From Thermoanaerobaculia bacterium (GTDB lineage Bacteria; Acidobacteriota; Thermoanaerobaculia; Gp7-AA8), in contig DASPHC010000055.1 of assembly GCA_035629865.1 (NCBI GenBank), forward strand, positions 134,940 to 198,939: DNA of 64,000 nt. The letters run 5' to 3'. The position numbers and the translations under genes were made by a program. The notes beneath the pieces were generated by a model that saw only the letters and a program-made list of their open reading frames with translations, was not told the DNA's origin and made no database searches. This document shows, in pieces, positions 3,558-64,000 of the stretch. Within the stretch, counting starts at the first letter, position 1. Every line of letters starts with the position of its first letter.

Positions 3558-3643
3558 GATAGGACGAATAGGACTGATAGGACCTATAAGACGTATAGGA
3601 CTCCGATCGTCCTATCAGTCCCATAGGTCCTATCGGTCCTATG
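3558..3643. repeat. Intergenic palindromic repeat cluster (ATAGGAC x4-5 facing GTCCTAT x4)
   Basis: Seen directly. Left-half ATAGGAC copies and right-half GTCCTAT copies form a long imperfect hairpin. The same family is at 7914, 11645 and 43597. Confidence 0.7.
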
Positions 3644-5733: not shown

Positions 5734-7905
5734 ATGCGCCGATTCATCATCCTGATCTCGGCTCTCGTCGTTGCTACACACGCGCTCGCCGTCGCGCCGC
5801 AGTTCTGGCGCGTCGGAGCCGCCGAAGAGTTCCTGGCCGGCGAGCTCGAAGGCTTCGCCGTCACCTCGCGCGGAGAGCTGCGTGTCGCGCCGGCGATGAA
5901 GAAAGTCGCCTCCTTCACCGACCCGTTCGTCCTCTCCCAGACGGTTGCGCCGAACGGGGACCGTTTCTTCGGCACCGGCAATGACGGCAAGGTCTACCGC
6001 CTGCGCGGCGAAGAGCTGAAGGTGCTGTTCACCGCGCCGGAGCCGGAGATCTACGCCGTCTCCTTCGCGAACGGAGCCCTGCTCGCCGGCAGCTCGCCGA
6101 ACGGCAAGGTCTATCGCATCGATCCGGAGAGCGGCCAGCAGAGCGTCTTCTTCGAGCCGAAGCAGGCCTACATCTGGGCCATTGAGCCCGCGGGCAGCGA
6201 CGTCCTGGTCGCCACCGGCGTCGAAGGGCAGCTCTTCCGCGTTTCTGCAAAGGGCGAGGGCAAGATCTTCTACGACTCGGCCGACACGCACATCCGCTCG
6301 GTCGCCGTGCGGAAAGACGGGACCATCCTGGCCGGCGGGTCCGGCAAGGGACGCATCTATCAGATCGGCCGCGACGGCGCGGCCATCGCACTGTTCGAAT
6401 CGCCGCTGAACGAGATCACCGCGATCTACGTCGACGCCAACGGCACCGGCTGGGCGGCGGGGGCGAGCAACGTCCTGCCGTCGACCGCGCCGAAGACGCA
6501 GCCGAAGAGCGGCAGCGGCTCGCAACAGCAGCAGGGATCCGGCCAGTCGGGCTCCGGCGAAGCGAAGAAGGAAGGGGAGGCGACTCCGACCGTCGAAGTC
6601 TCGTTCTCCTTCGACGACTCCACCGCCACCGCGGCCTCGCAGGCCGGCTCGGCGGAGATCTATCGCATCGATGCCGACGGCTTCGTCGACACGGTCCGCA
6701 AATTCGAGCGCGAGATGATCTACGGCCTGAGCGGCGGTCCAAACGGCTCCATCCTCGTCGCGACCGGCCCGAACGGCCGCGTCTATGAATTGAGCGGCGG
6801 CGAGGTCGCTCTCGTCGGCGCCGTCCCCGAAAAGCAGGTGGTCTCCATCTCCGGCTCCGGCAACACGGCTCTGATCACCACCACCAACACCGGTGCGGTC
6901 TACCGGATGGAAGGGCGCAGCGCCGCCACCGCGGAGTTCCGCTCGGTGGCGAAGGACGCGGAGCGCTTCTCGCGCTTCGGCAACTATCGGATCGAAGGGC
7001 GCAACATGCCGGCCGGCTCGGTCGCCGTCTCGTTCCGCAGCGGCAACACCCGTACGCCCGACGCGACGTGGAGCAACTGGACCGCTCCGCAGTCGTCGCT
7101 CGAAGGGAACGTCGGCGCTCCCGCCGCGCGGTACATCCAGTGGAAGTTGACGCTGCCGAAGCCGGCCGCCGATGCGTCGGTCGACCACGTCACGGTCGCG
7201 TTCATGAACCGCAACGTGCCGCCGGAGATCGAGGCGGTCGGCGTGCAGGAGCCGGCCGTGGTCTTCATTACTTCGGCCTATCCCTCGGCGCCGCAGGTCG
7301 TGGAGGCGACGAATCCCGACGAGTACGGGATCTTCACGAGTCTCGACAATCCGCGCGAGCGCGCCGTCGCGGAGCAGGGGAAGCGGATGTTCCGCAAGGG
7401 CTTCCGCACCGTCTCCTGGCGCGCCAGCGACGACAACGGCGACACCATCCGCTACACCCTCTCGTTCCGCCGGAAGGGGAGCGAGCAGTGGCTGCGCCTC
7501 CGCGAGAACATCGAAGAGACGCAGATGAACTTCGACACCTCCCAGCTTCCGGACGGTCTCTACGAGCTGCGCCTCGTCGCCAGCGACGCCTCGGACAATC
7601 CGGAGATGCCGCTGACGGATACACGGGACGGGGTCGAGTTCCAAGTCGACAACACCGCGCCGAAGATTGCCGTCGCCACGAACGGCAGCGACGTGACGGT
7701 GCGGATCACGGATGACGTCTCGCCGATCGGCCGCGTCGAATACTCGGCCGACGCGGAGAAGTGGATCCGCATCCTCCCGGTCGACGGCATCGCCGACTCG
7801 CGCGACGAGACGTTCCGCCTCGACCGCAAGAGCGTGGACGGCAAGTTCGTGGTGGTCCGGGCGGTCGACGCGCAGTACAACGTGACCACCGAGTCGGTAC
7901 GGTAG
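5734..7905 (+). CDS. Secreted beta-propeller protein (two-component-regulator-propeller-like repeats plus Y_Y_Y/Ig-like C-terminal domains), no kinase or receiver domain
   Basis: RBS plus signal peptide RRFIILISALVVATHALA. The N-terminal region has repeated GKVYRL, GKVYRI, GRIYQI and GRVYEL blades. A Gly/Ser/Gln-rich linker follows. The C-terminus resembles Y_Y_Y domains (TVSWRASDDNGD, YELRLVASDASDN). Confidence 0.6.
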   Translation: MRRFIILISALVVATHALAVAPQFWRVGAAEEFLAGELEGFAVTSRGELRVAPAMKKVASFTDPFVLSQTVAPNGDRFFGTGNDGKVYRLRGEELKVLFTAPEPEIYAVSFANGALLAGSSPNGKVYRIDPESGQQSVFFEPKQAYIWAIEPAGSDVLVATGVEGQLFRVSAKGEGKIFYDSADTHIRSVAVRKDGTILAGGSGKGRIYQIGRDGAAIALFESPLNEITAIYVDANGTGWAAGASNVLPSTAPKTQPKSGSGSQQQQGSGQSGSGEAKKEGEATPTVEVSFSFDDSTATAASQAGSAEIYRIDADGFVDTVRKFEREMIYGLSGGPNGSILVATGPNGRVYELSGGEVALVGAVPEKQVVSISGSGNTALITTTNTGAVYRMEGRSAATAEFRSVAKDAERFSRFGNYRIEGRNMPAGSVAVSFRSGNTRTPDATWSNWTAPQSSLEGNVGAPAARYIQWKLTLPKPAADASVDHVTVAFMNRNVPPEIEAVGVQEPAVVFITSAYPSAPQVVEATNPDEYGIFTSLDNPRERAVAEQGKRMFRKGFRTVSWRASDDNGDTIRYTLSFRRKGSEQWLRLRENIEETQMNFDTSQLPDGLYELRLVASDASDNPEMPLTDTRDGVEFQVDNTAPKIAVATNGSDVTVRITDDVSPIGRVEYSADAEKWIRILPVDGIADSRDETFRLDRKSVDGKFVVVRAVDAQYNVTTESVR

Positions 7906-7913
7906 CAGCGCTG

Positions 7914-8012
7914 GACGAATAGGACCTATGGGACGAATAGGACTGATAGGACCAATGGGACTCCATGGGTCCCATCGGTCCTATTCGTCCCATTGGTCCC
8001 ATTTGTCCGATA
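7914..8012. repeat. Intergenic palindromic repeat cluster (ATAGGAC/GTCCTAT family, with GGGACC/GGTCCC variant units)
   Basis: Same family as 3558..3643. gacgaataggacctatgggacgaataggactgataggacc faces ggtcccatcggtcctattcgtcccattggtccc. Confidence 0.7.
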
Positions 8013-12725: not shown

Positions 12726-13005
12726 AAATCAATGGATGCGTCATCGAAATCGACGGCCGCGCTGTCGAATTGATGGCTGCGTCATCGAAATTGGTAGCCA
12801 TGTCATCGAAATCGATGGTGATGCAATCGAAATCGATGGCGATGCAATCAAAATCGATGGCCATGCAATCAAAATCGATGACCATGCAATCGAAATCGAT
12901 GGCGATGTCATCAAAATCGATGGTGATGTCATCGAAATCGATGACGATGTCATCGAAATCGATGGTGTTGGCATAGAAAACGATGGCGGCGCATGAGAAA
13001 TCGAC
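12726..13005. repeat. Tandem direct repeat array, 21-bp unit x about 13 (consensus ATGCAATCGAAATCGATGGYG)
   Basis: Seen directly. Contiguous head-to-tail 21-mers with point variants, open in all six frames. Located in a convergent intergenic gap. Confidence 0.9.
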
Positions 13006-14589: not shown

Positions 14590-14690
14590 TTCGTTATCGG
14601 TTGTCAGTTGCCGGTTATCTGCACTGCATCGCCCGGGCGACAAGGTTTCCCCGGACCGACGACCGACAACTGACAACGTCATGAGCGCAC
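14590..14690. repeat. Inverted-repeat element (GTTATCGGTTGTCAGTTGYCGG ... CCGACAACTGACAAC)
   Basis: Terminal inverted repeats flank a spacer of about 60 bp. The same family is at 35780 and 54360. Confidence 0.7.
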
Positions 14691-16688: not shown

Positions 16689-17615
16689 TTACAACCCCCG
16701 CGCGGCCCGTTCCTGCGGCTCGAGGAGGTGGTAGAGAGTGTTGGTGACGGGCACCGCCACGCCGCTCTGCTGCGCCAGCCTCACGACCGCGCCGAGTTGC
16801 GCGTCGAGCTCGGACGGCTTCCCTTCCATGATGTCGCGCTGCATCGACGACGTGGAGGCCGGCGCGAGGGCGTCGTAGCGCTCCCAGGTCTTCGCGACGG
16901 CGTCCTCGCCGAGGTCGATGCCGCGCGCTTTCGCCAGCTCGACAATCTCCTTCAGGGAACCGTCGACGATCAGCCGAACCTCCGGATTGACGCGCCACAC
17001 GCCGATGGGAACGCGGGTCAGGGCGCCGATGGCGCTCATGGAGGCGATGAAGAGGAACTTGGTCCACATGGAGCGGTGGATGTCGGGAGGGATCTCGGCG
17101 TTGATCCCGGCGCGCTCGAATGTTGCGCGGAGCCTCTCCAGACGCTCCGTGCGGCGGTTGTCGAGCTCCCCGAACATCACCAGCGGCTCGAAGGCCACGT
17201 GGCGGATGTGCCCCGGGGCGACGGCCAGGCTGACGATCGCGCAGAGTCCGCCGAGGACGTGCTGGCTGCCGAGGATCGTGGCCAGGACGTCGGGAGCATC
17301 GATGCCGTTCTCCACCGGCACGACGACGGTGTCTTTACCGATGAGCGGCCGTATCTGCACCGCCGCCTCGGGGACCTGCCACGACTTGACGGTCATGAGG
17401 ACGGCGTCGACCGGGTCTATGGTGGAAGGGTCGTCGGTGGCTTGGACGTGGTCGAGGGTGAAGTCGCCGAGGATGCTGTCGACGCGGATGCCTTTGGTCC
17501 TGAGTGCGTCGAGGGTGAGGTCGCGCGCGATGAACGTCGTGTCGACCCCCGCCTGTGCCAGCCGCCCGCCAAAGTATCCACCGACACCGCCCGCGCCTAC
17601 GACTGCGATTTTCAT
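16689..17615 (-). CDS. panE: 2-dehydropantoate 2-reductase
   Basis: N-terminal MKIAVVGAGGVGGYFGGRLA Rossmann motif and ApbA C-terminal domain. Confidence 0.85.
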   Translation of the reverse strand: MKIAVVGAGGVGGYFGGRLAQAGVDTTFIARDLTLDALRTKGIRVDSILGDFTLDHVQATDDPSTIDPVDAVLMTVKSWQVPEAAVQIRPLIGKDTVVVPVENGIDAPDVLATILGSQHVLGGLCAIVSLAVAPGHIRHVAFEPLVMFGELDNRRTERLERLRATFERAGINAEIPPDIHRSMWTKFLFIASMSAIGALTRVPIGVWRVNPEVRLIVDGSLKEIVELAKARGIDLGEDAVAKTWERYDALAPASTSSMQRDIMEGKPSELDAQLGAVVRLAQQSGVAVPVTNTLYHLLEPQERAARGL

Positions 17616-17679
17616 GGGGGGATTTTATGCATGGAGGCGTCCCCCAATGTGTCTTCCTGAGACAGGGCACTGCGCGAGG

Positions 17680-17915
17680 CGCAGCGAAAGCGATCCGCCG
17701 CAGCCGCCGTAGGCGGCGAAAGATCTGTAGGCCCGGCCTTTAGGCCGGGTAAGGTCGAGGAGAAAGGCAAGTCCGCGAAGCGGGCGACAGTGTAGGTTTT
17801 TCGCGTGTCCCCTGTTCTGTCGCCCGCTTCGCGGACTCGCCTTCGTAGGCCCGCACGATACCCGCCCTGAAGGGCGGGCCTACAGATCTTCCCGCCGCCT
17901 ACGGCGGCTGCGGTG
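17680..17915. mobile_element. MITE-like palindromic element, about 230 bp, copy 1
   Basis: Terminal inverted repeats GCCGCCGTAGGCGGCGAAAGATCTGTAGGCCCGGCCTTTAGGCCGGGT and its reverse complement. Nested inner inverted repeat GTCGCCCGCTTCGCGGAC. Copies at 61527 and 63866. Confidence 0.7.
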
Positions 17916-17972
17916 CTCATTTCTTCACAGCCTCTCGGATGACAGGAAGAGGGGGCTTGTCTCTGCTCGGTC

Positions 17973-18488
17973 CTACCCCTTCTTCTTCCATGCCCCCTGC
18001 GCACGATGGCTCCGCATCCACACCTCATCCAACGCCCCACCATCGAACATCTTCGCGATCCACACCACCTGCCCCGTATGCGTCGCGAGGTGCGCGGTCA
18101 CGTTGATCAGATCCTCGACGATCAGGTTGTGCATCGTCGGCTCGGGTGACGCGTCGTTCATCCGCTCCGGGGTGAGCGTTTCGAACGTTTTCTCCGCGTT
18201 GGCGACCATTTCGTCGAACAGCGCCAGAAGTTCCGCCTTCGGAATGGCCTTGCGCTCGCTGAACTCCGCCGCCCGGTCGCGCGTGTAATCGAGCCCGCCG
18301 AGGTTCCGGTTGAGAAAGTGATTCAGCGAGCCGGTGAGGTGCAGGAGGATGTTGCCGATCGAGTTCGAAGCCTCGTTCGGCCGCCACCAGACCTGCTCGT
18401 CCGTCAGCTTCTCCACCGCCGCACGAATCTGCGCGGGGAAGACGCCGGTGATGCGGGTACGGAAGGCGTTGAAAGCGATTTCGTTCAT
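17973..18488 (-). CDS. DinB/YfiT-like (DinB_2 superfamily) protein
   Basis: Conserved His positions (ILLHLTGSLNHF, HLATHTGQ) typical of the DinB four-helix bundle. Confidence 0.65.
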   Translation of the reverse strand: MNEIAFNAFRTRITGVFPAQIRAAVEKLTDEQVWWRPNEASNSIGNILLHLTGSLNHFLNRNLGGLDYTRDRAAEFSERKAIPKAELLALFDEMVANAEKTFETLTPERMNDASPEPTMHNLIVEDLINVTAHLATHTGQVVWIAKMFDGGALDEVWMRSHRAQGAWKKKG

Positions 18489-20694: not shown

Positions 20695-22302
20695 ATGAGC
20701 GAATTGGTGACCGCCACAGATACGCCTACGGTGCGTCCGTCGACGGGCCAGGACGGCAACCGCGACAAGTCGCTGCCGGTCGAGCCGAAGTCGGTCGTCT
20801 GGAACCCGACCCCCGAGCAGCTCCGGCAGTTCGCCGGGGAGATGCCGAATGCGCGCCCGACCGAGTTCGGCAATCTGAACGTCGCCACGCGCGTCGTCTC
20901 GCGCTCCAAATTGTCGACCTTCGTCGCCACCGACACCCCGGAGCAGCACTCGGACCAGACCATCACGCGCGCTGAGTATGACCGCATCTCGCGGCTCCAG
21001 AACGACTACATCAAGACGCACGACATGCTCGTCGTCGAAGGCTACATCGGAAACGACCCCGAGTTTCGCGTCCCGGCCCGCCTGATCATCGAGAAGGCGA
21101 ACGCCAACATCGCGGCGATGCAGGACATCCTCTATTACCGGGCCAGCGAGGACGAGATCGCCGATTTCCAGCCGGCCGCGACTGTCATCTACACGCCGAA
21201 CCTGCGCGCCGAGGGATATCCCGACGAGCGCCTGATCGCGGTCGACCTCGAGAGCTACATCACCCGCGTCTTCAACTCCGATTACTTCGGCGAGTCGAAG
21301 AAGGGCGGACTGCGGATGTGGAACAAGCTGGTTTACGAGCGCGGCGGTCTGGCGCTCCACGCCGGCTGCAAAGTCATTCCGGTAGGCGACACGAAGCGCG
21401 TCGGCCTCATCGTCGGACTCTCCGGCACGGGCAAGACCACCACGACTTTCACCAAGCAGAACGAGTCGCAGCCGGTGCAGGACGACTTTTGCGCGCTCAT
21501 GCCGGGCGGGAAAATCTACGCGACCGAGAACGGCTGCTTCGCCAAGACGTTCGGCCTCAATCCGAACGACGAGCCGACGATCTACCACGCCTGCGCCTCG
21601 ACGCACGCTTACCTCGAGAACGTCTCCCAGAACGAGGAAGGGAAAGTCGACTACTTCGACACGTCCTACACGCCGAACGGCCGGGCCGTCATCCGGATGG
21701 AGGACATCTCCGGTGCCGCCGACGCGCGCGAGATTACCAAGGCCGACTTCCTCCTGATCCTGAACCGCAACGAGAACATCATCCCGGCCGTGGCGAAGCT
21801 CGAGGGGCCGCTGGCGGCCGCCTTCTTCATGCTCGGCGAGACCAAGGGCACCAGCGCCGGCGGCGCGTCGGAAGCCGGCAAGTCGCTGCGCGTCCCCGGC
21901 ACCAATCCGTTCTTCCCGCTGCTGCACGCCTACCAGGGCAACCGGATGCTCGAGCTCATGAACGACAGCCCGATGGAGGTCTACCTCATGAACACCGGCG
22001 CCATCGGCGGCGACGGAAAGGCCGAGGGGTCGAAGAAGGTGAAGATCCAGCACTCGTCCGCGGTCGTGAAAGCAATCGCCGAGGGGACCATCAAGTGGGA
22101 GCGCGATCCTGACTTCGGATACCTCGTGGCGACGGAAGTCCCGGGCATCGACGACGCCGACTACCTGCAGCCGAAGAAGATGTATGAGCGGCAGGGGAGG
22201 CTCGACGAGTACAACCAACTCGTCGCCAAGTACAACAATGACCGCCGGGAGTACCTGAGGAAGTGGAAGGGGCTCTCCGAGGAAGTGGTCAACGCGATCT
22301 GA
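20695..22302 (+). CDS. pckA: Phosphoenolpyruvate carboxykinase (ATP)
   Basis: Kinase-1a motif GLSGTGKTT and full-length PEPCK-ATP layout. A terminator follows. Confidence 0.95.
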   Translation: MSELVTATDTPTVRPSTGQDGNRDKSLPVEPKSVVWNPTPEQLRQFAGEMPNARPTEFGNLNVATRVVSRSKLSTFVATDTPEQHSDQTITRAEYDRISRLQNDYIKTHDMLVVEGYIGNDPEFRVPARLIIEKANANIAAMQDILYYRASEDEIADFQPAATVIYTPNLRAEGYPDERLIAVDLESYITRVFNSDYFGESKKGGLRMWNKLVYERGGLALHAGCKVIPVGDTKRVGLIVGLSGTGKTTTTFTKQNESQPVQDDFCALMPGGKIYATENGCFAKTFGLNPNDEPTIYHACASTHAYLENVSQNEEGKVDYFDTSYTPNGRAVIRMEDISGAADAREITKADFLLILNRNENIIPAVAKLEGPLAAAFFMLGETKGTSAGGASEAGKSLRVPGTNPFFPLLHAYQGNRMLELMNDSPMEVYLMNTGAIGGDGKAEGSKKVKIQHSSAVVKAIAEGTIKWERDPDFGYLVATEVPGIDDADYLQPKKMYERQGRLDEYNQLVAKYNNDRREYLRKWKGLSEEVVNAI

Positions 22303-22330
22303 GCTCGCAGCTCTAAGCTCGCAGTTCAAA

Positions 22331-28725: not shown

Positions 28726-28754
28726 GGGACGAGGTCCTCAGAACGAGAGATGAG

Positions 28755-28838
28755 AGATGAGAGATGAGCGATGAACGGAGAGCCGCTGAGCGTTCATCGC
28801 TCATCTCTCCTCGCTCATCTCTCGTACCGCGCAGCATG
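28755..28838. repeat. Palindromic repeat (GAGAGATGAGCGATGA family)
   Basis: gagagatgagagatgagagatgagcgatgaacg faces cgttcatcgctcatctctcctcgctcatctctc. Family copies at 56224 and 63787. Confidence 0.7.
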
Positions 28839-31440: not shown

Positions 31441-31503
31441 TGTTAAGCTCGCAGCTCTCAGCTCGCAGCTCTCAGGGGGTTTTTGCTGAGAGCTGAGAAC
31501 TGC
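31441..31503. repeat. AGCTCGCAGCTCT repeat with a hairpin
   Basis: agctcgcagctctcagctcgcagctctcag ... ctgagagctg. A related copy flanks the pckA terminator at 22303..22392. Confidence 0.5.
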
Positions 31504-35779: not shown

Positions 35780-35895
35780 GGTTATCGGTTGTCAGTTGTC
35801 GGTTATCTGTCAGTCCTCGGCTTCGGTTGCCGTACCGCGAGTGCCGTCCAGGCGATCAATGGCAGACAACTGACAACCGACAACTGCTTCACCGT
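35780..35895. repeat. Inverted-repeat element (GTTATCGGTTGTCAGTTGTCGG ... CCGACAACTGACAACCG)
   Basis: Same family as 14590 and 54360. Lies between hprK and rapZ. Confidence 0.7.
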
Positions 35896-37720: not shown

Positions 37721-37800
37721 ACAAAGGCAGAAGGCAGAAAGCAAAAGGCAGAAGGTTCACATCCTTCTGCCCTCTGCCTTCTGACTTCTGCCTTTGACTT
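37721..37800. terminator. Long perfect hairpin (GGCAGAAGG repeats) downstream of hpf; putative terminator
   Basis: aaaggcagaaggcagaaagcaaaaggcagaagg-ttcacat-ccttctgccctctgccttctgacttctgcctttg. A related motif is at 40637..40668. Confidence 0.5.
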
Positions 37801-40623: not shown

Positions 40624-40695
40624 GCGCGGCGGAGAGTATCAGGTGAGGGCAGAAGGACGAAGGCAGAAGGCAGAAGTGGGAAAAGAGTTACAGCG

Positions 40696-46904: not shown

Positions 46905-46965
46905 TTTCGCCGGAGCGCCGGTTTTCAAAACCGGCCGGTCCGCCGACCTCGGGTCGGCGGGCTCT
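46905..46965. terminator. Two adjacent perfect hairpins between convergent genes (putative bidirectional terminator)
   Basis: CCGGTTTTcAAAACCGG and CCGCCGACCtcgGGTCGGCGG. A related repeat family is at 52880..53140. Confidence 0.55.
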
Positions 46966-51388: not shown

Positions 51389-51680
51389 CGGACTCATCGA
51401 TGAGTAGCGCGGACTCATCGGTCGGTCGGGATCGACTCATGGATCGGTCGGGATCGACTCATGGATCGGTCGGGATCTACCCATGGATCGGTCGGGATCG
51501 ACCCATGAATCGGTCGGGATCGATCCATGGATCGGTCGGGATCGACCCATGGATCGGTCGGGATCGACCCATGGATCGGTCGGGATCGACTCATGGATCG
51601 GTCGGGATCGACTCATCGCCGGTCGGGATCGACTCATCGGCCGGTCGCGATCGACTCATCGGCCGGTCGCGATCGACTCA
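51389..51680. repeat. Tandem direct repeat array, 22-bp unit x about 13 (consensus CGGTCGGGATCGACYCATGGAT)
   Basis: Seen directly. Head-to-tail 22-mers with decay at both ends and two GATC per unit. Located in a convergent intergenic gap. Confidence 0.9.
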
Positions 51681-52794: not shown

Positions 52795-52879
52795 CGGTTG
52801 CTGGTTGTCGGTTGCTGGTTGTCTGGGCCGTCTCGCGATAGATGAACGGTGACGCGAGAGCTGCCCCTCGGGTCTCGGC

Positions 52880-53140
52880 GTTACGGAGCGCCGACGTTCC
52901 GTCGGCCGGTCCGCCGACCTTCGGTCGGCAGTCTCTCGGGGTGAGTGAAGATCGACAGATCACCATCCTCCCGAGGGCGACCGGACTAAAAGTCCGGCCC
53001 ACATGTGGCCAGGATTTCCTAGCATCGGCTGCCCACATGTGGCGCGGACTTTTAGTCCGGGCCGGCACTCGCGACGCGCAGACTGCCGACCGAAGGTCGG
53101 CGGACCGGCCGGTCGAAGACCGGCGCTCCTTTGGTTCGCC
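52880..53140. mobile_element. MITE-like palindromic element of about 260 bp (family 2)
   Basis: Outer inverted repeats GAGCGCCG..CCGGCCGGTCCGCCGACCTTCGGTCGGCAG. Inner inverted CCGGACTAAAAGTCCGG and duplicated CCCACATGTGGC. Confidence 0.65.
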
Positions 53141-54348: not shown

Positions 54349-54359
54349 GGCTGCGCCGC

Positions 54360-54452
54360 CGTTATCGGTTGTCCGTTGTCAGTTGTCCGAACCGACGACG
54401 CTCGGAGGGCCGTGCATCGACAGACAACCGACAACTGACAACTGTTTTCAAC
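54360..54452. repeat. Inverted-repeat element (GTTATCGGTTGTCCGTTGTCAGTTGTCCG ... CAGACAACCGACAACTGACAAC)
   Basis: Third copy of the family seen at 14590 and 35780. Confidence 0.7.
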
Positions 54453-56209: not shown

Positions 56210-56223
56210 AAATTCGAGAGATG

Positions 56224-56300
56224 AGCGATGAGAGATGAGCGATGAACCTCGGGGAAGGCTCTGCTCATCTCTCATCGCTCATCGTTCATCTCGCTCCTGT
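56224..56300. repeat. Palindromic repeat (GAGAGATGAGCGATGA family)
   Basis: gagagatgagcgatgagagatgagcgatgaac faces gctcatctctcatcgctcatcgttcatctc. Confidence 0.7.
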
Positions 56301-56962: not shown

Positions 56963-59287
56963 GTGGCCGATGCCTTCCCGACAGTTCTGGACCATTACCG
57001 AGTCCTCTCGCTGATCGGCGCGGGAGGCATGGGCGAGGTCTACCTGGCCAGCGACGACAAGCTCGGCCGGAGGGTGGCGATCAAGATCCTCCCCGACTCC
57101 GTCAGCCGCGACACCGAGGCGAAGCTGCGCATGCTCCGCGAGGCCCGGGCCGTGGCGGCGCTCGATCATCCGAACGTCTGCACGATCTATGAGGTCGGCG
57201 AGCACGAGGGGCGTCCCTACATCGTCATGCAGTTCGTCGAGGGCGAGACGCTCTTCGACCGGCTCCAGCAGTCGCGCATGTCCCCGACTGAATGCCTCGA
57301 CGTGGCCACGCAGGTCGCGGCGGCGCTCGACGAGGCCCACAGCCACGGCGTGGTCCACCGCGACATCAAGCCGATGAACATCATGCTCACCCCGCGCGGC
57401 GTGGTGAAGGTGCTCGACTTCGGCCTGGCGAAGTTCACCGGCGGTATCGACGCCACGGCCGACTCGCTCAAGTCGCGCACCGGCATCATCACCGGGACGG
57501 CGCCGTACATGTCGCCGGAGCAGCTTCGCGGCTCGACGGTCGACGCGCGCACCGACATCTTCTCCCTTGGCGTGGTTCTCTACGAGATGGTCACCGGCCG
57601 CCGCCCCTTCGAGCGTGGCAGCACGGTCGCGACGATCACGGCCATCCTCTTCGAGGAGCCGAACCCGGTCGACGAGCCGGGCTTCACGGCCTTCGTGCCG
57701 ATCCTCCGCCGGGCCATGGCGAAGGAACCGTCGAAACGCTACAGCACCGTCGGGATGCTGCTCGAGGCGCTGCAGGACGTGAAGGCGCGGCCTCGCTCCG
57801 GCGCGAAGCGCCCCCCGCGCGCTGCCACCGCGGAGCTCGACCCGACGGAGTCGATGGAGCGTCCGGCCGTGACCCGCCCGCGCAGCGGACGGATCGAATC
57901 GCTGGCCGTGCTGCCGTCGGTGAGCGGCGACCTCGAGGCCAGCCTCGAATATCTCGTCTACGGCCTCAGCGAAGGGATCGTCAACGCGCTCGCCCAAGTC
58001 CGGAAGCTGCGCGTGATCGCGCCCGGCACGGCCGCCCAGTACGCCGGTACCGAGCCGGATCCGCGGGAGGCGGGACGCGAGTTGAACGTCGCCGCGATCG
58101 TGGTCGTGAGGGCGCGCGTCGACGGTGACCAGCTGCACGCGGACGTCGACCTGGTCAGCACCGCCGACGGCTCGCTGCTCTGGTCGTCGAAGTACACACG
58201 CGCGGTCCACGAGGTCGCGGCGCTCTCCGAGGCCATCGCGGACGACATCGCGGAACGGATCCGCGGCGGCACCACCACGTCGCCGCGGCGCGCAGCGAAG
58301 AAGAAGCGAGCCATCGACGTGGAAGCGGAGCAGTTGCACCTCAAGGGGCGCTTCCAGTGGATCAAGCGCCATCCGGAGGCGGTCAAGCGGGCCATGACCT
58401 TCTTCCAGCAGGCGGTGGAGCGCGACCCGTCGTTCGCCCTCCCCTACGCCGGTCTCGCCGACTGCTTCGTGATGCTCGGCTTCATGCAGGCCCTCCCGCC
58501 GCGGGAGATCCTGCCGAAAGTGAAGGCGGCGGCGAAGAAAGCGATCGAGCTCGATCCGCTGCTCGCCGATCCGCACGCCACGCTCGGCTATGCCGCCGGC
58601 CTGTTCGAGTGGAACCTGGAGGCCGGCCAGCTCGAGCTCGAGGAGGCGATGCGCCTCAACCCGAATTATCCGTGGGCGCCGCACTGGCTGGGCATCCTCA
58701 TGTCCGGCCGCGGGCATACGCGGCGCGCGCTGGAGCTGATCGACATGGGGAAGGACCTCGATCCGCTCTCCCCGATCATCAACGTCAGCGCCGGGATCCC
58801 GCTCCACATCGCCCGCCGCTACGACGACGCGGTGAATTGCTACCGCTCGGTCCTGGAGATGGACCCGACGCTCGCCCCCGGCCACTATTACCTCGGCATG
58901 TCGCTGCAGATGCGCGGCGAGTACGACGAGGCCGCGCGCTCCATCGAGCGCGCCATCGAGATCGCCGGCCCGGCCCCGATCTTCCTCGGCGGCATCGCCC
59001 ACGTCTTCGCCTCCGCCGGCCGCACCGCCGACGCGACGCGCATGGTCGACGAGCTACACACCATGGCCCGCCAGCGCTACGTCTCCCCCTATGGCTTCGC
59101 CATCGCCCACACGGGCCTCGGCCAGAACGACGAGGCCCTGGCCGCGCTGGAGAAAACGCTCGACGAGCACAACGCCTGGGCGTACTTCATCCCGGTGGAC
59201 CCAAGGTTCGACAGCCTGCGCGAGGATGCGCGGTTTGGACCGCTGGTGGAGAAGTATGGGCTGCCGGCCAGTTGCGAGATCGACTGA
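56963..59287 (+). CDS. Serine/threonine protein kinase with C-terminal TPR domain
   Basis: GxGxxG IGAGGMGEVY, VAIK, HRDIKPMN, DFG and APE motifs. TPR repeats lie in the C-terminal 330 aa. Confidence 0.85.
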   Translation: MADAFPTVLDHYRVLSLIGAGGMGEVYLASDDKLGRRVAIKILPDSVSRDTEAKLRMLREARAVAALDHPNVCTIYEVGEHEGRPYIVMQFVEGETLFDRLQQSRMSPTECLDVATQVAAALDEAHSHGVVHRDIKPMNIMLTPRGVVKVLDFGLAKFTGGIDATADSLKSRTGIITGTAPYMSPEQLRGSTVDARTDIFSLGVVLYEMVTGRRPFERGSTVATITAILFEEPNPVDEPGFTAFVPILRRAMAKEPSKRYSTVGMLLEALQDVKARPRSGAKRPPRAATAELDPTESMERPAVTRPRSGRIESLAVLPSVSGDLEASLEYLVYGLSEGIVNALAQVRKLRVIAPGTAAQYAGTEPDPREAGRELNVAAIVVVRARVDGDQLHADVDLVSTADGSLLWSSKYTRAVHEVAALSEAIADDIAERIRGGTTTSPRRAAKKKRAIDVEAEQLHLKGRFQWIKRHPEAVKRAMTFFQQAVERDPSFALPYAGLADCFVMLGFMQALPPREILPKVKAAAKKAIELDPLLADPHATLGYAAGLFEWNLEAGQLELEEAMRLNPNYPWAPHWLGILMSGRGHTRRALELIDMGKDLDPLSPIINVSAGIPLHIARRYDDAVNCYRSVLEMDPTLAPGHYYLGMSLQMRGEYDEAARSIERAIEIAGPAPIFLGGIAHVFASAGRTADATRMVDELHTMARQRYVSPYGFAIAHTGLGQNDEALAALEKTLDEHNAWAYFIPVDPRFDSLREDARFGPLVEKYGLPASCEID

Positions 59288-59462
59288 CGGTTGGACCCTT
59301 TCCCGACATCCCTTGCGGCGAGACGCCGCCGGCGCCGGGACGGCCCCCGACCAGACGGGGGAGACGCCGGCGCTCCCCGTGGCGGGAGCGGAGGTGCTCG
59401 GGAGGCCGGCAGGGGTGTGGACGAGAGCTACCAAACCACGGCAAGCCATCGTGCGTACATAG

Positions 59463-60440
59463 TTGGTGCGCTCCATGATGACTCGCGTTCTCCCGCTGGT
59501 TCTGCTGTGCGTCCTCACGGTTTCATCGCCCGCCTGGTGCGAGACGGTCGCCGGCCCTCCGGGACGGATGGTCGATGTCGGAGGGCGGCGTCTGCATCTG
59601 CTCTGCGTCGGTGCCGGCTCCCCAACCGTCGTTTTCGAATCCGGTCTCGGCGAAGGCTCGTACGCATGGGCTCTCGTACAGCCTGCCGTCGGACGGCAGT
59701 ATCGTGCCTGCTCCTACGACCGCAGCGGCATCGCGTTCAGCGATCCCGATCCGGCCCCGCGGTCTGTTGCCGGATTGGTGAGTGACCTTCATGAACTGCT
59801 GGGTCGTTCGGGCGAGCGCGGACCCTATCTTCTTGTCGGTCACTCGCTGGGCGGACTCTTCGTCCGCCGGTACGCGATGCGCTATCCGGACGAGGTCGCG
59901 GGATTAGTGCTCGTCGACTCGTCGCACGAGGACGGACGCCGCACCGCATCGCGCGAGATCGCCGACGCACAGGCGAAGGCTCTGGCAGCGAGAGGCGAAC
60001 AGATGAAGAGGTGGCGTGTGTCCGGACAGTTCGAGGAGATGGGATTCCATGACAAGGTCCCGAAGAGCATGCTCAGGGTGCTCAAACCTCGCAGCGGGTC
60101 GGAGAACTGGTGGGATGCACGGTTCCGTGAAAACAGCCTGCCCGATGCACAGGACGACCTCACGCCCGAGCAGCGGCGTCTCCAGGTACCGGTTGTCGTG
60201 ATCACCGCGACCGAGTGGCCTACGCCGCGAAACTATCCTCCGATCGCGTGGAAGCAACACATCGAAACCCGGATGCGCCTGCAGGAAGAGCTCGCGTCCC
60301 GGTCGCCGCGCTCGAAGCATATCGTCGTTCGGACTGAGCATCACGTCCAGTTCGAGAACCCGGACATTGTCATCAAATCGATCGTCGAGCTGGCACGCCA
60401 CTGGCGGACCTGGCCTTCGACGGGATCTCCTTCGCAGTGA
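59463..60440 (+). CDS. Secreted alpha/beta hydrolase
   Basis: Signal peptide plus nucleophile elbow GHSLGG. Confidence 0.7.
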   Translation: MVRSMMTRVLPLVLLCVLTVSSPAWCETVAGPPGRMVDVGGRRLHLLCVGAGSPTVVFESGLGEGSYAWALVQPAVGRQYRACSYDRSGIAFSDPDPAPRSVAGLVSDLHELLGRSGERGPYLLVGHSLGGLFVRRYAMRYPDEVAGLVLVDSSHEDGRRTASREIADAQAKALAARGEQMKRWRVSGQFEEMGFHDKVPKSMLRVLKPRSGSENWWDARFRENSLPDAQDDLTPEQRRLQVPVVVITATEWPTPRNYPPIAWKQHIETRMRLQEELASRSPRSKHIVVRTEHHVQFENPDIVIKSIVELARHWRTWPSTGSPSQ

Positions 60441-60495
60441 ATACCGCCGCAGTGACGAACCAGAAATTTGGGGTCACCGCCCCTTCCTCCGCGCC

Positions 60496-60909
60496 TCAGT
60501 GCGTCATCCCCCACCCCACGAGAAAGATTCCGATGGCGAGCAGCACCACGGAGCAGCCGATCTTGCGGGTACGGGGAACGGGACGGGCGCCCGAGGGAAG
60601 GTTCGGGTCGTACGCCACCTGCAGCGGCGCCCCGACGGTTTTGGGAGCATCGGCGGCGTCGATCTCGTACTCGACGCCATCGGCCGCGCGAAAGCGGACG
60701 ATGGGAACGGTATAGAACGAATCGCTGGACGTCGGGGCGTTCCTCGACAGATGTCCTCTCCTCCCAATGCGGGAAACGAAGCCTTCGGCCTTCGCCGCTC
60801 CGGCACACCACACCTCATGGCTCCGGTGCGCCTTGCTGTCGGCCCGCCAGAAAAACGCCGCGACCGCGCAGGCAGCCGCACCGGCTGCGACCAGGGACGT
60901 GTCCGGCAT
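60496..60909 (-). CDS. Hypothetical membrane protein (DUF3592-like)
   Basis: N-terminal transmembrane segment and C-terminal transmembrane segment flank a beta-rich segment. The start is uncertain. Confidence 0.4.
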   Translation of the reverse strand: MPDTSLVAAGAAACAVAAFFWRADSKAHRSHEVWCAGAAKAEGFVSRIGRRGHLSRNAPTSSDSFYTVPIVRFRAADGVEYEIDAADAPKTVGAPLQVAYDPNLPSGARPVPRTRKIGCSVVLLAIGIFLVGWGMTH

Positions 60910-60986
60910 GCGGCCATGATCGAGAGATCGGCGGCGAATGTCCACCGGCGTTGGTGATGCAGGACGTGCCGGCGGAACCGGCACCC

Positions 60987-61358
60987 TCAGCGGTGCTGAT
61001 CGACGAGAACCGGGTTTCCGTCGGGGTCCTCCGCGATGAAGCTGGCCGGACCGGTCGTGCTCTCATCGGCTTCGCTGACGAACTGAACGCCCTGTGCCTT
61101 CAACTGGCGCTGCAATTCGCGGACGTCCGTGAACGTCGCCAACTCCTGGGCATTGCTGTCCCAGCCAGGGTTGAAGGTCAGGATGTTCTTCTCGAACATG
61201 CCCTGAAAGAGCCCGATGACATGGTCGCCGTTCTTCAGGAGCAGCCAATTCTGGGAAGGATCGCCCCCGAACGCTTTGAACCCGAACTTCTCATAAAACT
61301 CCCTCGATGCGCCGAGGTCCTTGACCGCCAGGCTGATCGAAAACGCGCCGAGCTCCAT
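60987..61358 (-). CDS. VOC-family (glyoxalase/bleomycin-resistance fold) protein
   Basis: Full-length beta-alpha-beta-beta-beta glyoxalase fold pattern, with PDGNPV near the C-terminus. Confidence 0.7.
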
Positions 61359-61526
61359 GTCCTGCTCCCGTGTGTTTCAAGATTCCGGAGCGATGTGCTT
61401 CGCCGGTCGGAGAGTGAGGGCGGAATGGTACCGCTTCCTCGCAACGGTGTGCCGTACCGACTGCTCTGACCCCCACCTCTTCCGGAAATAGGCGGCCGCT
61501 CGCGGGTGCAAAGACTCCGACGAGAG

Positions 61527-61740
61527 GCGCCGAAGGCGGCGAAAGATCTGCGTAGGCCCGCCCTTTAGGCCGGGTTACGCGTGGACACGTTCCAAGCCCG
61601 CGTAGCGGGCGACAGAACACAAGCCCGCGCAGACGTGCTTTTCTGTCGCCCGCTACGCGGGCTCACCTGAGGGGCGCTTGTGAAACCCGGCCTAAAGGCC
61701 GGGCCTACAGATCTTTCGCCGCCTTCGGCGGCTCCTGCAA
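61527..61740. mobile_element. MITE-like palindromic element, copy 2 (same family as 17680..17915)
   Basis: GCCGAAGGCGGCGAAAGATCTGCGTAGGCCCGCCCTTTAGGCCGGGT ... GTCGCCCGCTACGCGGG ... ACCCGGCCTAAAGGCCGGGCCTACAGATCTTTCGCCGCCTTCGGCGGC. Confidence 0.7.
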
Positions 61741-61913
61741 GGTCAGAGGACACCGTTTCCTGGAAACGGCACTTAGATGGCGCAGAAGTCGACGTTGGGA
61801 TCAGAAGTCGCTGCTCTGCCTCCAGGCGAGGAGTGTCGGCACATCGCTTCGTCCCTACCCAGCGAACGTACGCGATCTGGTTTTTCAACAGAACCGAGAC
61901 AGCCGTGAGCTGT

Positions 61914-63782
61914 CTACCCCGCTGCCGGCTGTAGCGGTAACTCGTCATCCACAAACTGCAGGTCATACAACTTCCGGTACACCCCGCGCCGCGCCAGCAG
62001 TTCTTCGTGCGTTCCCACCTCCACGATCGCTCCCTTGTCGAGCACCACGATCTTGTGGGCGCTGCGGATGGTGGAGAGGCGGTGGGCGATGACGAGGGTG
62101 GTGCGGCCTCGCATGAGGTTGTTGAGGGCTTGCTGGACGAGGCGTTCGGATTCGGTGTCGAGGGCGGAGGTGGCTTCGTCGAGGATGAGGATGGGGGGGT
62201 CTTTGAAGAGGGCGCGGGCGATGGCGAGGCGCTGGCGCTGGCCGCCGGAGAGGAGGACGCCGCTTTCGCCGATGGAGGTGTCGTAGCCTTTGGGGAGGTT
62301 GGTGATGAATTCGTGGGCGTTGGCGGCCTGGGCGGCTTCGATGACCTGGCGTTCGTCGACGTCGGAGCGGCCGTAGGCGATGTTGTTGCGGACGGTGTCG
62401 TTGAAGAGGATGACTTCCTGGGTGACGAAGCCCATGAGGCCGCGCAGCGATTTGAGACGGGTGTCGCGGATGTCGACGCCGTCGACGGTGATCCGGCCTT
62501 CGCTGACGTCGTAGAAGCGCGGGAGGAGGTTGACCAGGGTGGACTTCCCTGCCCCGCTGCCGCCGACGAGGGCGACGATCTCGCCCGGCGCGACGTCGAG
62601 GTTGACGTTGCGGAGGACGGGGTCGTTGCCGTAGGTGAAGGTGACGTTTTCGTAGTGCACGCCGCTGCCGACGGACTGGATCTCGACGGCGTCCGGCTTC
62701 TCGGTGACTTCGTTGGGGATGTCGAGCATGCGGAAGACGCGCTCGGCGGCCGACAAGGCGGTGTTGAGGGAGAGGTTGACTTTGTTGAGCTTCTTGATCG
62801 GCGCGTACATCAGGGCCAGGGCGGTGAGGAAGCTGGCGAATTCGCCGCCGGTGAGGGTGCCGGCGGCGATGCGGGACTGGGCGTAGCCGAAGAGCATGAC
62901 CATGCAGAAGCCGGCCAGGAGCTCCATCACCGGCGAGGTCATGGCCTGCACGCGCTGCGCGCTAAGGGTCCAGCGGAGGTGCTTGCGGGTGGCTTCGTGG
63001 AAACGGCCGATCTCGAACGGTTCCATGGTGAAGGCTTTGACGATGCGGACGCCGCGGATGGTCTCTTCGAGCAGGGTCGCGATCTCGGCCATGCGCTCCT
63101 GGGAGCGATGGGTGGTCTTGCGGAGGCGTTTCCCGAACTGCACGACGGGAAAGACGATCAGCGGTGCGCCGACGAGGCTGACCAGGGCGAGCACGGGGTT
63201 GAGGATGAAGAGCCAGCAGATCAGGCCGACCAGCGTGACCGATTCCTGCAGCAGGTCGCCCATGCGGGTCGACACGGCGGCCTGGATGGCGTCGGCGTCG
63301 GAGACGACCCGGCTGACGATCTCGCCGGTGGAGCGCTCGCTGAAGAAGCGATGGCTCTGGCCGATCATCCGTTCGTAGAGTTGGTTGCGCAGCGCGCGGA
63401 CGGTGGATAGGCCGACTTTCTGGAATGAGTATTCGGAGAGGAACGAGGTGATGGCCCGGACGACGAAGACCATCAGCAGGATGGTGAGGACGCGCTTCCA
63501 GCGCAACTTCGGGTCGCCGTTCCACCACGCCTTGAAGCGCTTCTGGACGCGGTTGACGGCGGGCAGGTTCTGCTCGAGGAATCGTTCGGCGCCGGAGACG
63601 CGGGGGTTGGGCTCCCCTTTCCTCTGGATGCCCGGAGGCGTGAGAACGTCGTCGACGATCGGCTGCACGAGCGCCGCGAGAACGGTCTGGGTCAGCGCGA
63701 AGACGATCATCGAGCCGAAGGCGAGGAATGCCCAGGCTTTGTAGGCGCGGAGGTAGCCGTAGAGGCGGCGGAGGGGGGTCAT
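61914..63782 (-). CDS. msbA: ABC transporter ATP-binding/permease protein, MsbA-like lipid exporter
   Basis: Six-TM ABC_membrane domain plus NBD motifs ([29 protein letters not shown]). Confidence 0.85.
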   Translation of the reverse strand: MTPLRRLYGYLRAYKAWAFLAFGSMIVFALTQTVLAALVQPIVDDVLTPPGIQRKGEPNPRVSGAERFLEQNLPAVNRVQKRFKAWWNGDPKLRWKRVLTILLMVFVVRAITSFLSEYSFQKVGLSTVRALRNQLYERMIGQSHRFFSERSTGEIVSRVVSDADAIQAAVSTRMGDLLQESVTLVGLICWLFILNPVLALVSLVGAPLIVFPVVQFGKRLRKTTHRSQERMAEIATLLEETIRGVRIVKAFTMEPFEIGRFHEATRKHLRWTLSAQRVQAMTSPVMELLAGFCMVMLFGYAQSRIAAGTLTGGEFASFLTALALMYAPIKKLNKVNLSLNTALSAAERVFRMLDIPNEVTEKPDAVEIQSVGSGVHYENVTFTYGNDPVLRNVNLDVAPGEIVALVGGSGAGKSTLVNLLPRFYDVSEGRITVDGVDIRDTRLKSLRGLMGFVTQEVILFNDTVRNNIAYGRSDVDERQVIEAAQAANAHEFITNLPKGYDTSIGESGVLLSGGQRQRLAIARALFKDPPILILDEATSALDTESERLVQQALNNLMRGRTTLVIAHRLSTIRSAHKIVVLDKGAIVEVGTHEELLARRGVYRKLYDLQFVDDELPLQPAAG

Positions 63783-63786
63783 GTTG

Positions 63787-63835
63787 CGAGAGATGAGAGA
63801 TGAGCGATGAGAGATGAACGATGAGAGATGAACGG
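63787..63835. repeat. Palindromic repeat (GAGAGATGAGCGATGA family), direct-repeat-rich copy
   Basis: gagagatgagagatgagcgatgagagatgaacgatgagagatgaacg immediately upstream of the msbA start. Confidence 0.65.
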
Positions 63836-63865
63836 GGGCCGGCCGGCGACAGGACGCCCATGCCT

Positions 63866-64000
63866 CTGCTGCCGTAGGCAGCAAAAGATCTGTAGGCCCG
63901 GCCTTCAGGCCGGGTAAAGCGTGGATCGATGTTCGAGTCCGCGTAGCGGACGACAGACCAGAAACGCGCCGGTGGTCTTTTCTGTCGCCCGCTACGCGGG
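63866..64000. mobile_element. MITE-like palindromic element, copy 3 (cut by window end)
   Basis: GCCGTAGGCAGCAAAAGATCTGTAGGCCCGGCCTTCAGGCCGGGT ... GTCGCCCGCTACGCGGG matches copies 1 and 2. Confidence 0.65.

Follow-up and report, generated by a model that had tools for sequence, protein, structure and literature searches.

GTAG-tagged REP-like palindromes in head-to-head pairs: a probable REPIN- or BIME-like repeat family in an uncultured Thermoanaerobaculia lineage

Repetitive extragenic palindromes (REPs) handled by Y1 transposases of the REP-associated tyrosine transposase (RAYT) type are marked by unpaired GTAG at the base of a hairpin (PMC3733652, PMC3333891), and GTAG-type REPs have been delimited by a stem of 5-13 bp, a loop of 2-20 nt, and a GTAG outside the stem (Di Nocera, De Gregorio and Rocco 2013, PMC3733652). 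The present analysis concerns a palindromic repeat element that occurs in three copies (A, B, and C) in a 64,000-nt stretch of a Thermoanaerobaculia bacterium (GCA_035629865.1, contig DASPHC010000055.1, positions 134,940 to 198,939 of the forward strand), hereafter the window, to which all coordinates refer unless they carry the label of one of the other sampled contigs (loci L001-L133). Features common to the element and the head-to-head (HH) dimers of GTAG REPs are a short GC-rich hairpin with unpaired GTAG at its base, stem changes that complement each other, copy numbers in the hundreds, the coexistence of families in one genome, dimers with outward GTAG ends and structured spacers of 20-100 bp, and unidirectional or convergent intergenic siting (PMC3733652). 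It differs from them in the extra outer hairpin with a GNA triloop and the conserved AAAGATCT linker of each arm, in a spacer holding a conserved inverted repeat of about 24 bp, in further subfamily-specific flank modules, and in that no flanking RAYT gene was found in the 1.18 Mb sampled.

The REP doublets forming hairpins (REPINs) of Pseudomonas and enterobacteria (Bertels and Rainey 2011, PMC3116915) resemble the element as inverted, intergenic REP doublets that are present in many copies without target duplication and are presumed to be mobilised in trans by a Y1 transposase; the element is about twice their size, about a quarter of its copies have heterotypic arms, and no single-copy RAYT flanked by it was found in the sampled DNA. 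The bacterial interspersed mosaic elements (BIMEs) of E. coli (Ton-Hoang et al. 2012, PMC3333891) are likewise mosaics of REP hairpins and other motifs in alternative combinations, in which the REPs have a GTAGGCC-like start and are targeted by insertion sequences, whereas the present family belongs to an unrelated lineage, uses another motif set, and gave no evidence of binding by integration host factor (IHF) or gyrase. A two-hairpin arm made of a tagged REP and an unrelated stem-loop also characterizes composite inverted repeats of P. putida and P. fluorescens, where a degenerate GTAG REP and a stem-loop occur together in hundreds of copies and flank tyrosine transposase genes (PMC3733652); the element's sequences are unrelated to theirs, and its own link to a transposase is by analogy only. 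For Acidobacteria, the part of that survey drawn on here reports only tyrosine transposases with long inverted repeats ('TIRYTs') and no GTAG REP family. Repeats of the REP/BIME-like kind are known; what is new here is such a family in a Thermoanaerobaculia genome.

We read the family as GTAG-tagged REPs arranged as head-to-head doublets, REPIN- or BIME-like, in uncultured Thermoanaerobaculia, with the pair of copies around msbA being independent insertions, and we give this reading a probability of roughly 60%. A dimer of this kind is preferred over a classical MITE (miniature inverted-repeat transposable element) because the arm anatomy, the tag, and the local hairpins match those of a GTAG-type REP. 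Read inwards, each arm consists of an outer hairpin H1 (GCYGCC, a 3-base loop, GGCRGC), the linker NAAAGATCT, GTAG, a second hairpin H2 (GCCCGGCC-TTYA-GGCCGGGT), a spacer of about 22 nt, and an inner-repeat arm, GAGCCCGCGTAGCGGGCGACAGAA, and the two inner arms of a copy are separated by a variable loop of about 20 nt. Among 232 distinct arms, the unpaired GTAG stands directly 5' of H2 in 230, and the H1 stem is either GCCGCC/GGCGGC or GCTGCC/GGCAGC, fully paired in both forms and closed by C-G over a loop that is nearly always GTA, GAA, GGA, or GCA. GNA triloops of this type are very stable in single-stranded DNA. The H2 stem is CCCGGCC/GGCCGGG, replaced in 22 of these arms by the doubly changed CCCGCCC/GGGCGGG, and the hairpin CCCGGCC-TTYA-GGCCGGG, with a 7-8-bp stem and a 4-nt loop, is 99% paired over 87 copies. 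The element combines a short GC palindrome, a GTAG tag, many copies, extragenic siting, and HH dimers.

The evidence that these hairpins are the units under constraint comes from covariation in the 87-copy alignment. The local hairpins are 98.4% paired, and their variable pairs are compensated, one being CG in 52 copies and UA in 33 with 2 exceptions, another GC in 79 and CG in 8 with none; the compensation score was matched by 0 of 500 shuffles. When the same columns are paired from arm to arm, the pairs are broken in 25 and 18 of the 87 copies, respectively, the H1 type is heterotypic between the two arms in 23 of 82 copies, and of the 18 elements bearing the H2 variant, 17 have it unmatched (18 of 19 cells at that alignment column pair). 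Because local pairs are compensated and arm-to-arm pairs break, what is conserved is each arm's local hairpins rather than one long hairpin, and heterotypic arms in about a quarter of copies argue in the same way against conservation of a whole-element hairpin. The inner repeat, with 93% arm-to-arm pairing and partial covariation, is the sole part in which arms covary with one another. With respect to the REPIN concept, in which the doublet is the unit and its covarying arms form one hairpin, doublets do dominate the family, yet only the inner repeat covaries arm to arm.

The family is large in its home population. A 20-mer of the element was found in at least 119 stretches of the metagenome collection, nearly all from the JGI soil metagenome 3300018432 and two sister samples, so the refuting outcome foreseen by the sequence-only reading, namely no further copies and a similarity restricted to terminator-like hairpins, did not occur. 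The window itself corresponds to contig Ga0190275_10002732 of that metagenome, the sole difference being 110 nt in a 22-nt tandem array, and the closest homologues of its PanE and MsbA proteins are named by NCBI as Thermoanaerobaculia or Acidobacteriota. In a copy census over 121 metagenome loci and the window, 239 half-sites were counted, and 98 of 141 site groups were HH pairs with a core-to-core span of 164-175 nt; 94 copies were distinct and complete, and 139 sites lay in 1.06 Mb of loci. Among representative genomes, an exact 20-mer retrieved a single diverged copy, in another Acidobacteriota metagenome-assembled genome, where GATCTGTAG and both hairpins are kept with different stems (GCCCGCG-AAA-CGCGGGC and CCCTGCC-TTCA-GGCAGGG). 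A degenerate-pattern scan of genome contigs gave zero matches, a scan of viral contigs for the element gave none, and Rfam returned nothing at gathering score on the window, its sole sub-threshold chance match being a plant miRNA hairpin model. Half elements were also seen (L019, L027, L037, L040, two in L057, L085, and L010:882), each with one full arm and one inner arm, stopping in the inner-repeat loop with unrelated sequence beyond.

Clustering resolved three main subfamilies and two small ones, with 85-88% identity inside a subfamily. Subfamily I (n = 43) has the GCTGCC form of H1 and includes copy C, subfamily II (n = 23) has GCCGCC with a GAA loop and includes copy A, and subfamily III (n = 15) has GCCGCC with a GTA loop and includes copy B. 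There are six spacer types; within a subfamily they are conserved, whereas a copy's two arms have different ones. Beyond H1 lie modules, 6 to about 65 nt long, that are specific to subfamily and arm and some of which end in a GTCATCCTGAG-like motif, and this mosaic make-up of copies and modules resembles that of the BIMEs of E. coli.

Within the window, the sequence-only reading had described three copies of one palindrome of about 220 bp, with terminal and nested inner inverted repeats, next to genes named msbA, panE, and DinB. The gene names held (an ABC exporter of the MsbA type, PanE, and DinB_2), as did the copies. A family profile built from 87 members hits exactly three places, 61525-61734 (A), 17701-17910 (B), and 63866-64000 (C), and nothing weaker, and the motif GTAGGCCCGGCCTTTAGGCCGGGT (up to 3 mismatches; the AGATCT-GTAG-hairpin core) has 5 sites against 0 in 100 shuffles, arranged as inverted pairs at 17727/17883 and 61552/61708 and a lone site at 63892 whose partner falls past the window end. 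Outer terminal inverted repeats and a nested inner inverted repeat are common to all three. The palindromic core of about 210 bp is real (A 61526-61732, B 17703-17908, and C from 63868 to the window end), but the repeated unit is longer, nearer 290 bp, since subfamily-specific flank modules outside H1 extend copy A to about 61481-61775 and copy B to about 17650-17946. The two internal spacers within a copy are not alike, so self-complementarity reaches only about 80% and each copy has an orientation. All three copies are members of one family, each from a different subfamily. Predicted single-strand folds are very stable in comparison with shuffles, at -171 kcal/mol (z = -15.6) for copy A and -179 kcal/mol (z = -17.9) for copy B.

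Copy A begins with a subfamily II flank module, CCGGAAATAGGCGGCCGCTCGCGGGTGCAAAGACTCCGACGAGAG, at 61481-61525, a module found ahead of the outer hairpin in many arms of subfamily II, and continues with a left H1 at 61526-61540 (GGCGCC-GAA-GGCGGC, one mismatch to the consensus GCCGCC-GAA-GGCGGC). There follow, on the plus strand at 61544-61575, AGATCT, a 2-nt GC insertion, GTAG, and the tagged hairpin H2 (GCCCGCCC-TTTA-GGCCGGGT), and then the inner inverted repeat at 61594-61664, with arms at 61594-61617 and 61641-61664 around a variable loop at 61618-61640. The right half carries H2, CTAC (the minus-strand GTAG), and AGATCT at 61685-61714 on the minus strand, H1 at 61718-61732 (GCCGCC-TTC-GGCGGC), and a flank module at 61733-61775 that is a variant, CCAGGAAACGGTGTCCTCTGACCTTGCAGGAG on the minus strand, fitting the type c arm flank consensus. 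In copy B, whose outer modules end in the GTCATCCTGAG-like motif, the left half has H1 at 17703-17717, AGATCT at 17721-17726, and GTAG with H2 at 17727-17750, the inner arms lie at about 17768-17791 and 17815-17838, and the right half has H2 with CTAC at 17860-17883, AGATCT at 17884-17889, and H1 at 17894-17908. Copy C, cut by the window end at 64000, retains H1 at 63868-63882 (GCTGCC-GTA-GGCAGC), AGATCT at 63886-63891, GTAG with H2 at 63892-63915, an inner arm at 63935-63958, the loop, and a second inner arm begun by 64000.

The siting of the copies was examined with our own GC3-based gene caller, which covered 90% of the window. The flanking genes of 84 classifiable copies are tandem in 54 cases, convergent in 26, and divergent in 4, against a background of 444, 130, and 127 (chi-square about 15); divergent intergenic regions are thus avoided, and the 3 apparent intragenic cases sit at called gene starts. 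The same bias towards unidirectional and convergent intergenic regions has been reported for REPs (PMC3733652). Target-site duplications, which the sequence-only reading had proposed as a mark to look for, did not emerge, as 92 of the 94 copies have no flanking direct repeat beyond a shuffled-pair control.

The comparison with relatives, also proposed there, showed copies to be absent from the corresponding DinB_2-panE and msbA sites. The DinB_2 gene (17973-18488, minus strand) and panE (16689-17615, minus strand) overlap by 4 nt in three relatives whose PanE is 72-74% identical, and in the window they are 357 bp apart, the intergenic insert at 17616-17972 between the DinB_2 stop and the panE start holding copy B. 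In a closer relative, L131 (PanE 86% identical), the junction carries a 428-bp array of TGTCAACGATGACA-type short palindromes (L131:144-571) and no element, and different lineages have thus had different repeats at this junction. A comparison of L018 with L072 was also made, and there synteny stops short of the element. From the relatives' loci compared, A and B are lineage-specific insertions, C probably likewise, and msbA has not moved.

On our interpretation, an IS200/RayT-type tyrosine transposase (Y1, HUH) would spread the copies in trans in the form of single-stranded DNA hairpins, recognising the tag together with the hairpin; selection for this recognition, and possibly uses that the host makes of the hairpins, would maintain the local stems. 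The IS200/IS605-type partner mentioned by the sequence-only reading is the best lead because the GTAG tag is invariant, the local hairpins are compensated, and target duplications are lacking, but no matching enzyme was found in the 1.18 Mb sampled. All open reading frames of the 1.18 Mb of sampled DNA were searched, and no RAYT was recovered with E. coli RayT (phmmer), an HUH/Y motif regular expression, or four acidobacterial TIRYT sequences (PMC3733652 supplement). A joint profile detected one Y1_Tnp gene of 147 amino acids (PF01797, E = 1e-21; NF033573 just above its cut-off) at L049:307-747 on the minus strand; its contig, from the same metagenome, bears two copies of subfamily II as well. 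Mirrored hairpins peculiar to this gene lie on its two sides, and its orthologues in two other metagenomes, 80% and 74% identical, are flanked by tandem clusters of the unit GCGCC-GGA-GGCGC, 8 nt, ATAG, and CCGGTGG...CCACCGG. IS200/RayT-like Y1 genes of this kind, coding for 147-148 amino acids, lie at L132:39-482 and L133:5001-5447, where the flanks are tandem clusters of an ATAG-tagged two-hairpin unit, a REPtron-like arrangement on Thermoanaerobaculia-type contigs. Y1 homologues are widespread, mostly with one contig per cluster, and are often labelled 'REP element-mobilizing transposase RayT' (the COG name) by JGI and mostly IS200/IS605 by NCBI.

The units flanking the Y1 genes follow the same two-hairpin grammar as the element arm in other sequences, and because the L049 flanks share that grammar but not the sequence, the link between the element family and a Y1 enzyme is inferred by analogy, a link that the candidate enzyme family in the same population strengthens. 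We would tentatively propose, as a possibility that we regard as doubtful on the whole, that the family is the substrate of a clade of IS200/RayT-like Y1 enzymes of about 148 amino acids, common in Thermoanaerobaculia and other soil phyla, that acts on a two-hairpin signal (GNA-triloop hairpin, 8-9-nt linker, RTAG, second hairpin), and that this would constitute a new REPIN-RAYT-type system in Acidobacteriota with three coexisting repeat subfamilies and specialised IS4-family insertion sequences targeting the tagged-hairpin loop.

Several observations weigh against the interpretation of the family as REP doublets spread by a Y1 enzyme. No Y1 gene bordered by element arms was found in the 1.18 Mb. 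The search for a cognate transposase yielded one IS200-type Y1 gene with another hairpin set, and this set is low-copy and is not repeated elsewhere in the sample. The doublet spacing of about 107 nt with its own inverted repeat, the outer hairpin, and the flank modules make the element bigger and more of a composite than a typical REPIN. Long direct repeats, which a Y1 mechanism does not predict, flank two of the copies, with lengths of 26 bp (approximately L031:7377-7402 and 7653-7678) and 52 bp (L034:1076-1127 and 1470-1521, including a gene's stop codon). Mobility is deduced from relatives at 72-93% protein identity rather than directly observed, and the hairpins may matter at the level of either single-stranded DNA or RNA.

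IS4-family insertion sequences (Nterm_IS4 and DDE_Tnp_1; NF033592) sit in the H2 loop of several copies, at L113:999-2468, about L043:156-1545, and L104:150 onward, with a remnant at about L010:3640-3660, and they fall into two types by their ends, CCAATGGCGTCAACTT... and AACGGTCTTAAGATAAG.... REP hairpins are known targets of insertion sequences, an IS4-family member included (PMC1525189). In L113, 10 bp of the hairpin loop, GCCTAAAGGC, are duplicated on either side of the insertion sequence, which is therefore an insertion into the element and not its parent, and the flanks of the one in L043 are mutually reverse complementary, which fits recombination between two insertion-sequence copies. 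The gaps between the close copies of L031 and L010 were considered as places for a transposase and set aside, as they hold an antitoxin-like gene and membrane proteins.

The sequence-only reading had taken the element for a non-autonomous mobile or MITE-like element. The family is indeed high-copy, non-autonomous, interspersed, and inserted relative to its relatives' loci, but a classical MITE, that is, what remains of a DDE-type insertion sequence after internal deletion, mobilised by cut-and-paste at the terminal inverted repeats and leaving short target-site duplications, is in our judgment quite unlikely. Classical bacterial MITEs are exemplified by the Correia/NEMIS elements of Neisseria. 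The element shares with them its size of about 210-300 bp, a palindromic form with long terminal inverted repeats, high copy number, a non-coding and interspersed nature, and, in L043 and L113, IS4-family transposase genes between its halves; it differs in lacking both regular target-site duplications and a parent insertion sequence with the same ends, as the IS4-family genes, weighed as an autonomous parent, have unrelated ends of their own of 17-20 bp with the loop duplicated, and no insertion sequence with AGATCTGTAGG-type ends was found in the sampled 1.18 Mb. Its outer boundaries, moreover, vary by subfamily and by arm, and its conservation tracks local hairpins, not terminal sequence.

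The hairpins might instead be selected chiefly by the host as structured elements in RNA or in the chromosome, acting as stabilisers of mRNA 3' ends, transcription barriers, or gyrase/IHF-type sites as in BIMEs, with spread being secondary. Such an account, which is compatible with the REP reading, would suit the enrichment of copies between convergent genes and their depletion between divergent ones, the very stable predicted folds with compensated stems, and the roles documented for enterobacterial REPs and BIMEs (PMC3733652, PMC3333891). We consider it unlikely as the primary explanation, given that the terminator scan found no copy with a trailing T run and flagged no hairpin inside the copies but one at 61897-61915, the exporter gene's own terminator-like hairpin upstream of copy A, that there is no orientation bias relative to the direction of flanking genes (16:10, 5:5, and 4:5), that Rfam is without a match, and that copies are missing from orthologous sites of relatives, where the genes are translationally coupled and the copies are thus not needed.

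A further proposal of the sequence-only reading was that the two copies around the msbA-type ABC exporter gene (61914-63782, minus strand) form a composite transposon-like, recombination-prone unit able to move, delete, invert, or amplify msbA. The copies are indeed close, with A 174 nt downstream and C 84 nt upstream, their longest exact matches to each other are 24 nt in direct and 22 nt in inverted orientation, and L043 illustrates that insertion sequences in elements can yield recombinant junctions. This unit is nevertheless highly improbable. A and C belong to different subfamilies, agree at 110 of 128 comparable nucleotides, and have no coding content and no transposase, although rare recombination between their short common runs may occur. 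Relatives whose MsbA is 91% and 87% identical show a 4-nt overlap of lpxB with msbA, and in them DUF374, yicC, gmk, rpoZ, and coaBC come 23 or 103 nt after msbA; in the window, msbA still lies upstream of this block, with the 7-nt array and copy C upstream of it and copy A plus about 4.5 kb between it and the block. The composite-unit reading is thus unsupported, since A and C differ in subfamily and msbA keeps its ancestral neighbourhood on the readable side. Half of the neighbouring site pairs in the sample (10 of 20, the msbA pair and at least 9 others) are less than 3 kb apart, and the A-C spacing is therefore what a dense intergenic repeat yields by chance; an adjacent pair would by our own estimate arise by chance with a probability of about 0.1 (3 sites, about 56 intergenic regions). 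We therefore return to two independent insertions, in which A and C make no functional unit and their placement around msbA looks incidental.

The segment of about 4.5 kb (approximately 56963-61358 in the window; L002:896-5225), absent from the relatives L128 and L130, encodes a glyoxalase-fold protein, whose gene lies downstream of copy A, a hypothetical protein of 137 amino acids, an alpha/beta hydrolase, and a Ser/Thr kinase with TPR repeats, and, as judged from the sequences compared, is a lineage-specific insertion adjoining copy A. A terminator-like hairpin with a T-rich tail, separate from copy A, follows directly on the msbA stop (61897-61915, minus strand), and a 7-nt tandem array of GAGAGAT/TCATCTC, a different class of repeat that is also present upstream of msbA in L129, lies between copy C and the msbA start (63788-63834). 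In L129, a 93% relative, msbA has this 7-nt array upstream and a different 9-nt palindromic array downstream, and copy A is absent. Nothing special follows for msbA itself from the flanking copies.

The wider interest of the family lies elsewhere. REP and REPIN repeats have been studied almost solely in Proteobacteria, and a populous family with clear subfamilies extends the kind to a poorly known phylum; the two-hairpin signal offers clean test material for candidate Y1 enzymes; and such repeats break short-read assemblies, are targets for insertion sequences, and divide operons that were once coupled (DinB_2-panE and apparently lpxB-msbA). Contig ends were seen inside repeats, L001:1-20 lying in the element and L129:1-90 in the 7-nt array.

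Tandem arrays with a period of 7 or 9 nt occur in many intergenic regions, often in inverted pairs able to form a hairpin, and the same types border many element copies in other loci and both sides of msbA in L129. In the window, these comprise 7-nt GAGAGAT arrays (28745-28823, 56216-56290, and the array at 63788-63834), 9-nt ATAGGACnn arrays (3559-3642 and 7913-8008), 7-nt AAGGCAG arrays (37724-37794 and 40648-40676), AGCTCGC arrays (31446-31475 and 22298-22324), and GGTTGYC-type arrays (52795-52823, 54359-54389, 14593-14621, and 35781-35821). To our knowledge, such short-period intergenic arrays have no described counterpart. Longer tandem arrays consist of 12 units of 22 nt at 51412-51680, where the window is 110 nt (5 units) shorter than contig L083 as the sole difference over 12.4 kb, and of about 10 units of 21 nt at 12740-12988. 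A second large nested palindrome at 52885-53129 (also 46930-46963) contains the small hairpins CCGACGTTCCGTCGG, CCGACCTTCGGTCGG, and CCGGACTAAAAGTCCGG; its unit ATGTGGCCCGGACTTTTAGTCCGGGC recurs in L031, L044, L049, and L121, and it is probably another REP-like family.

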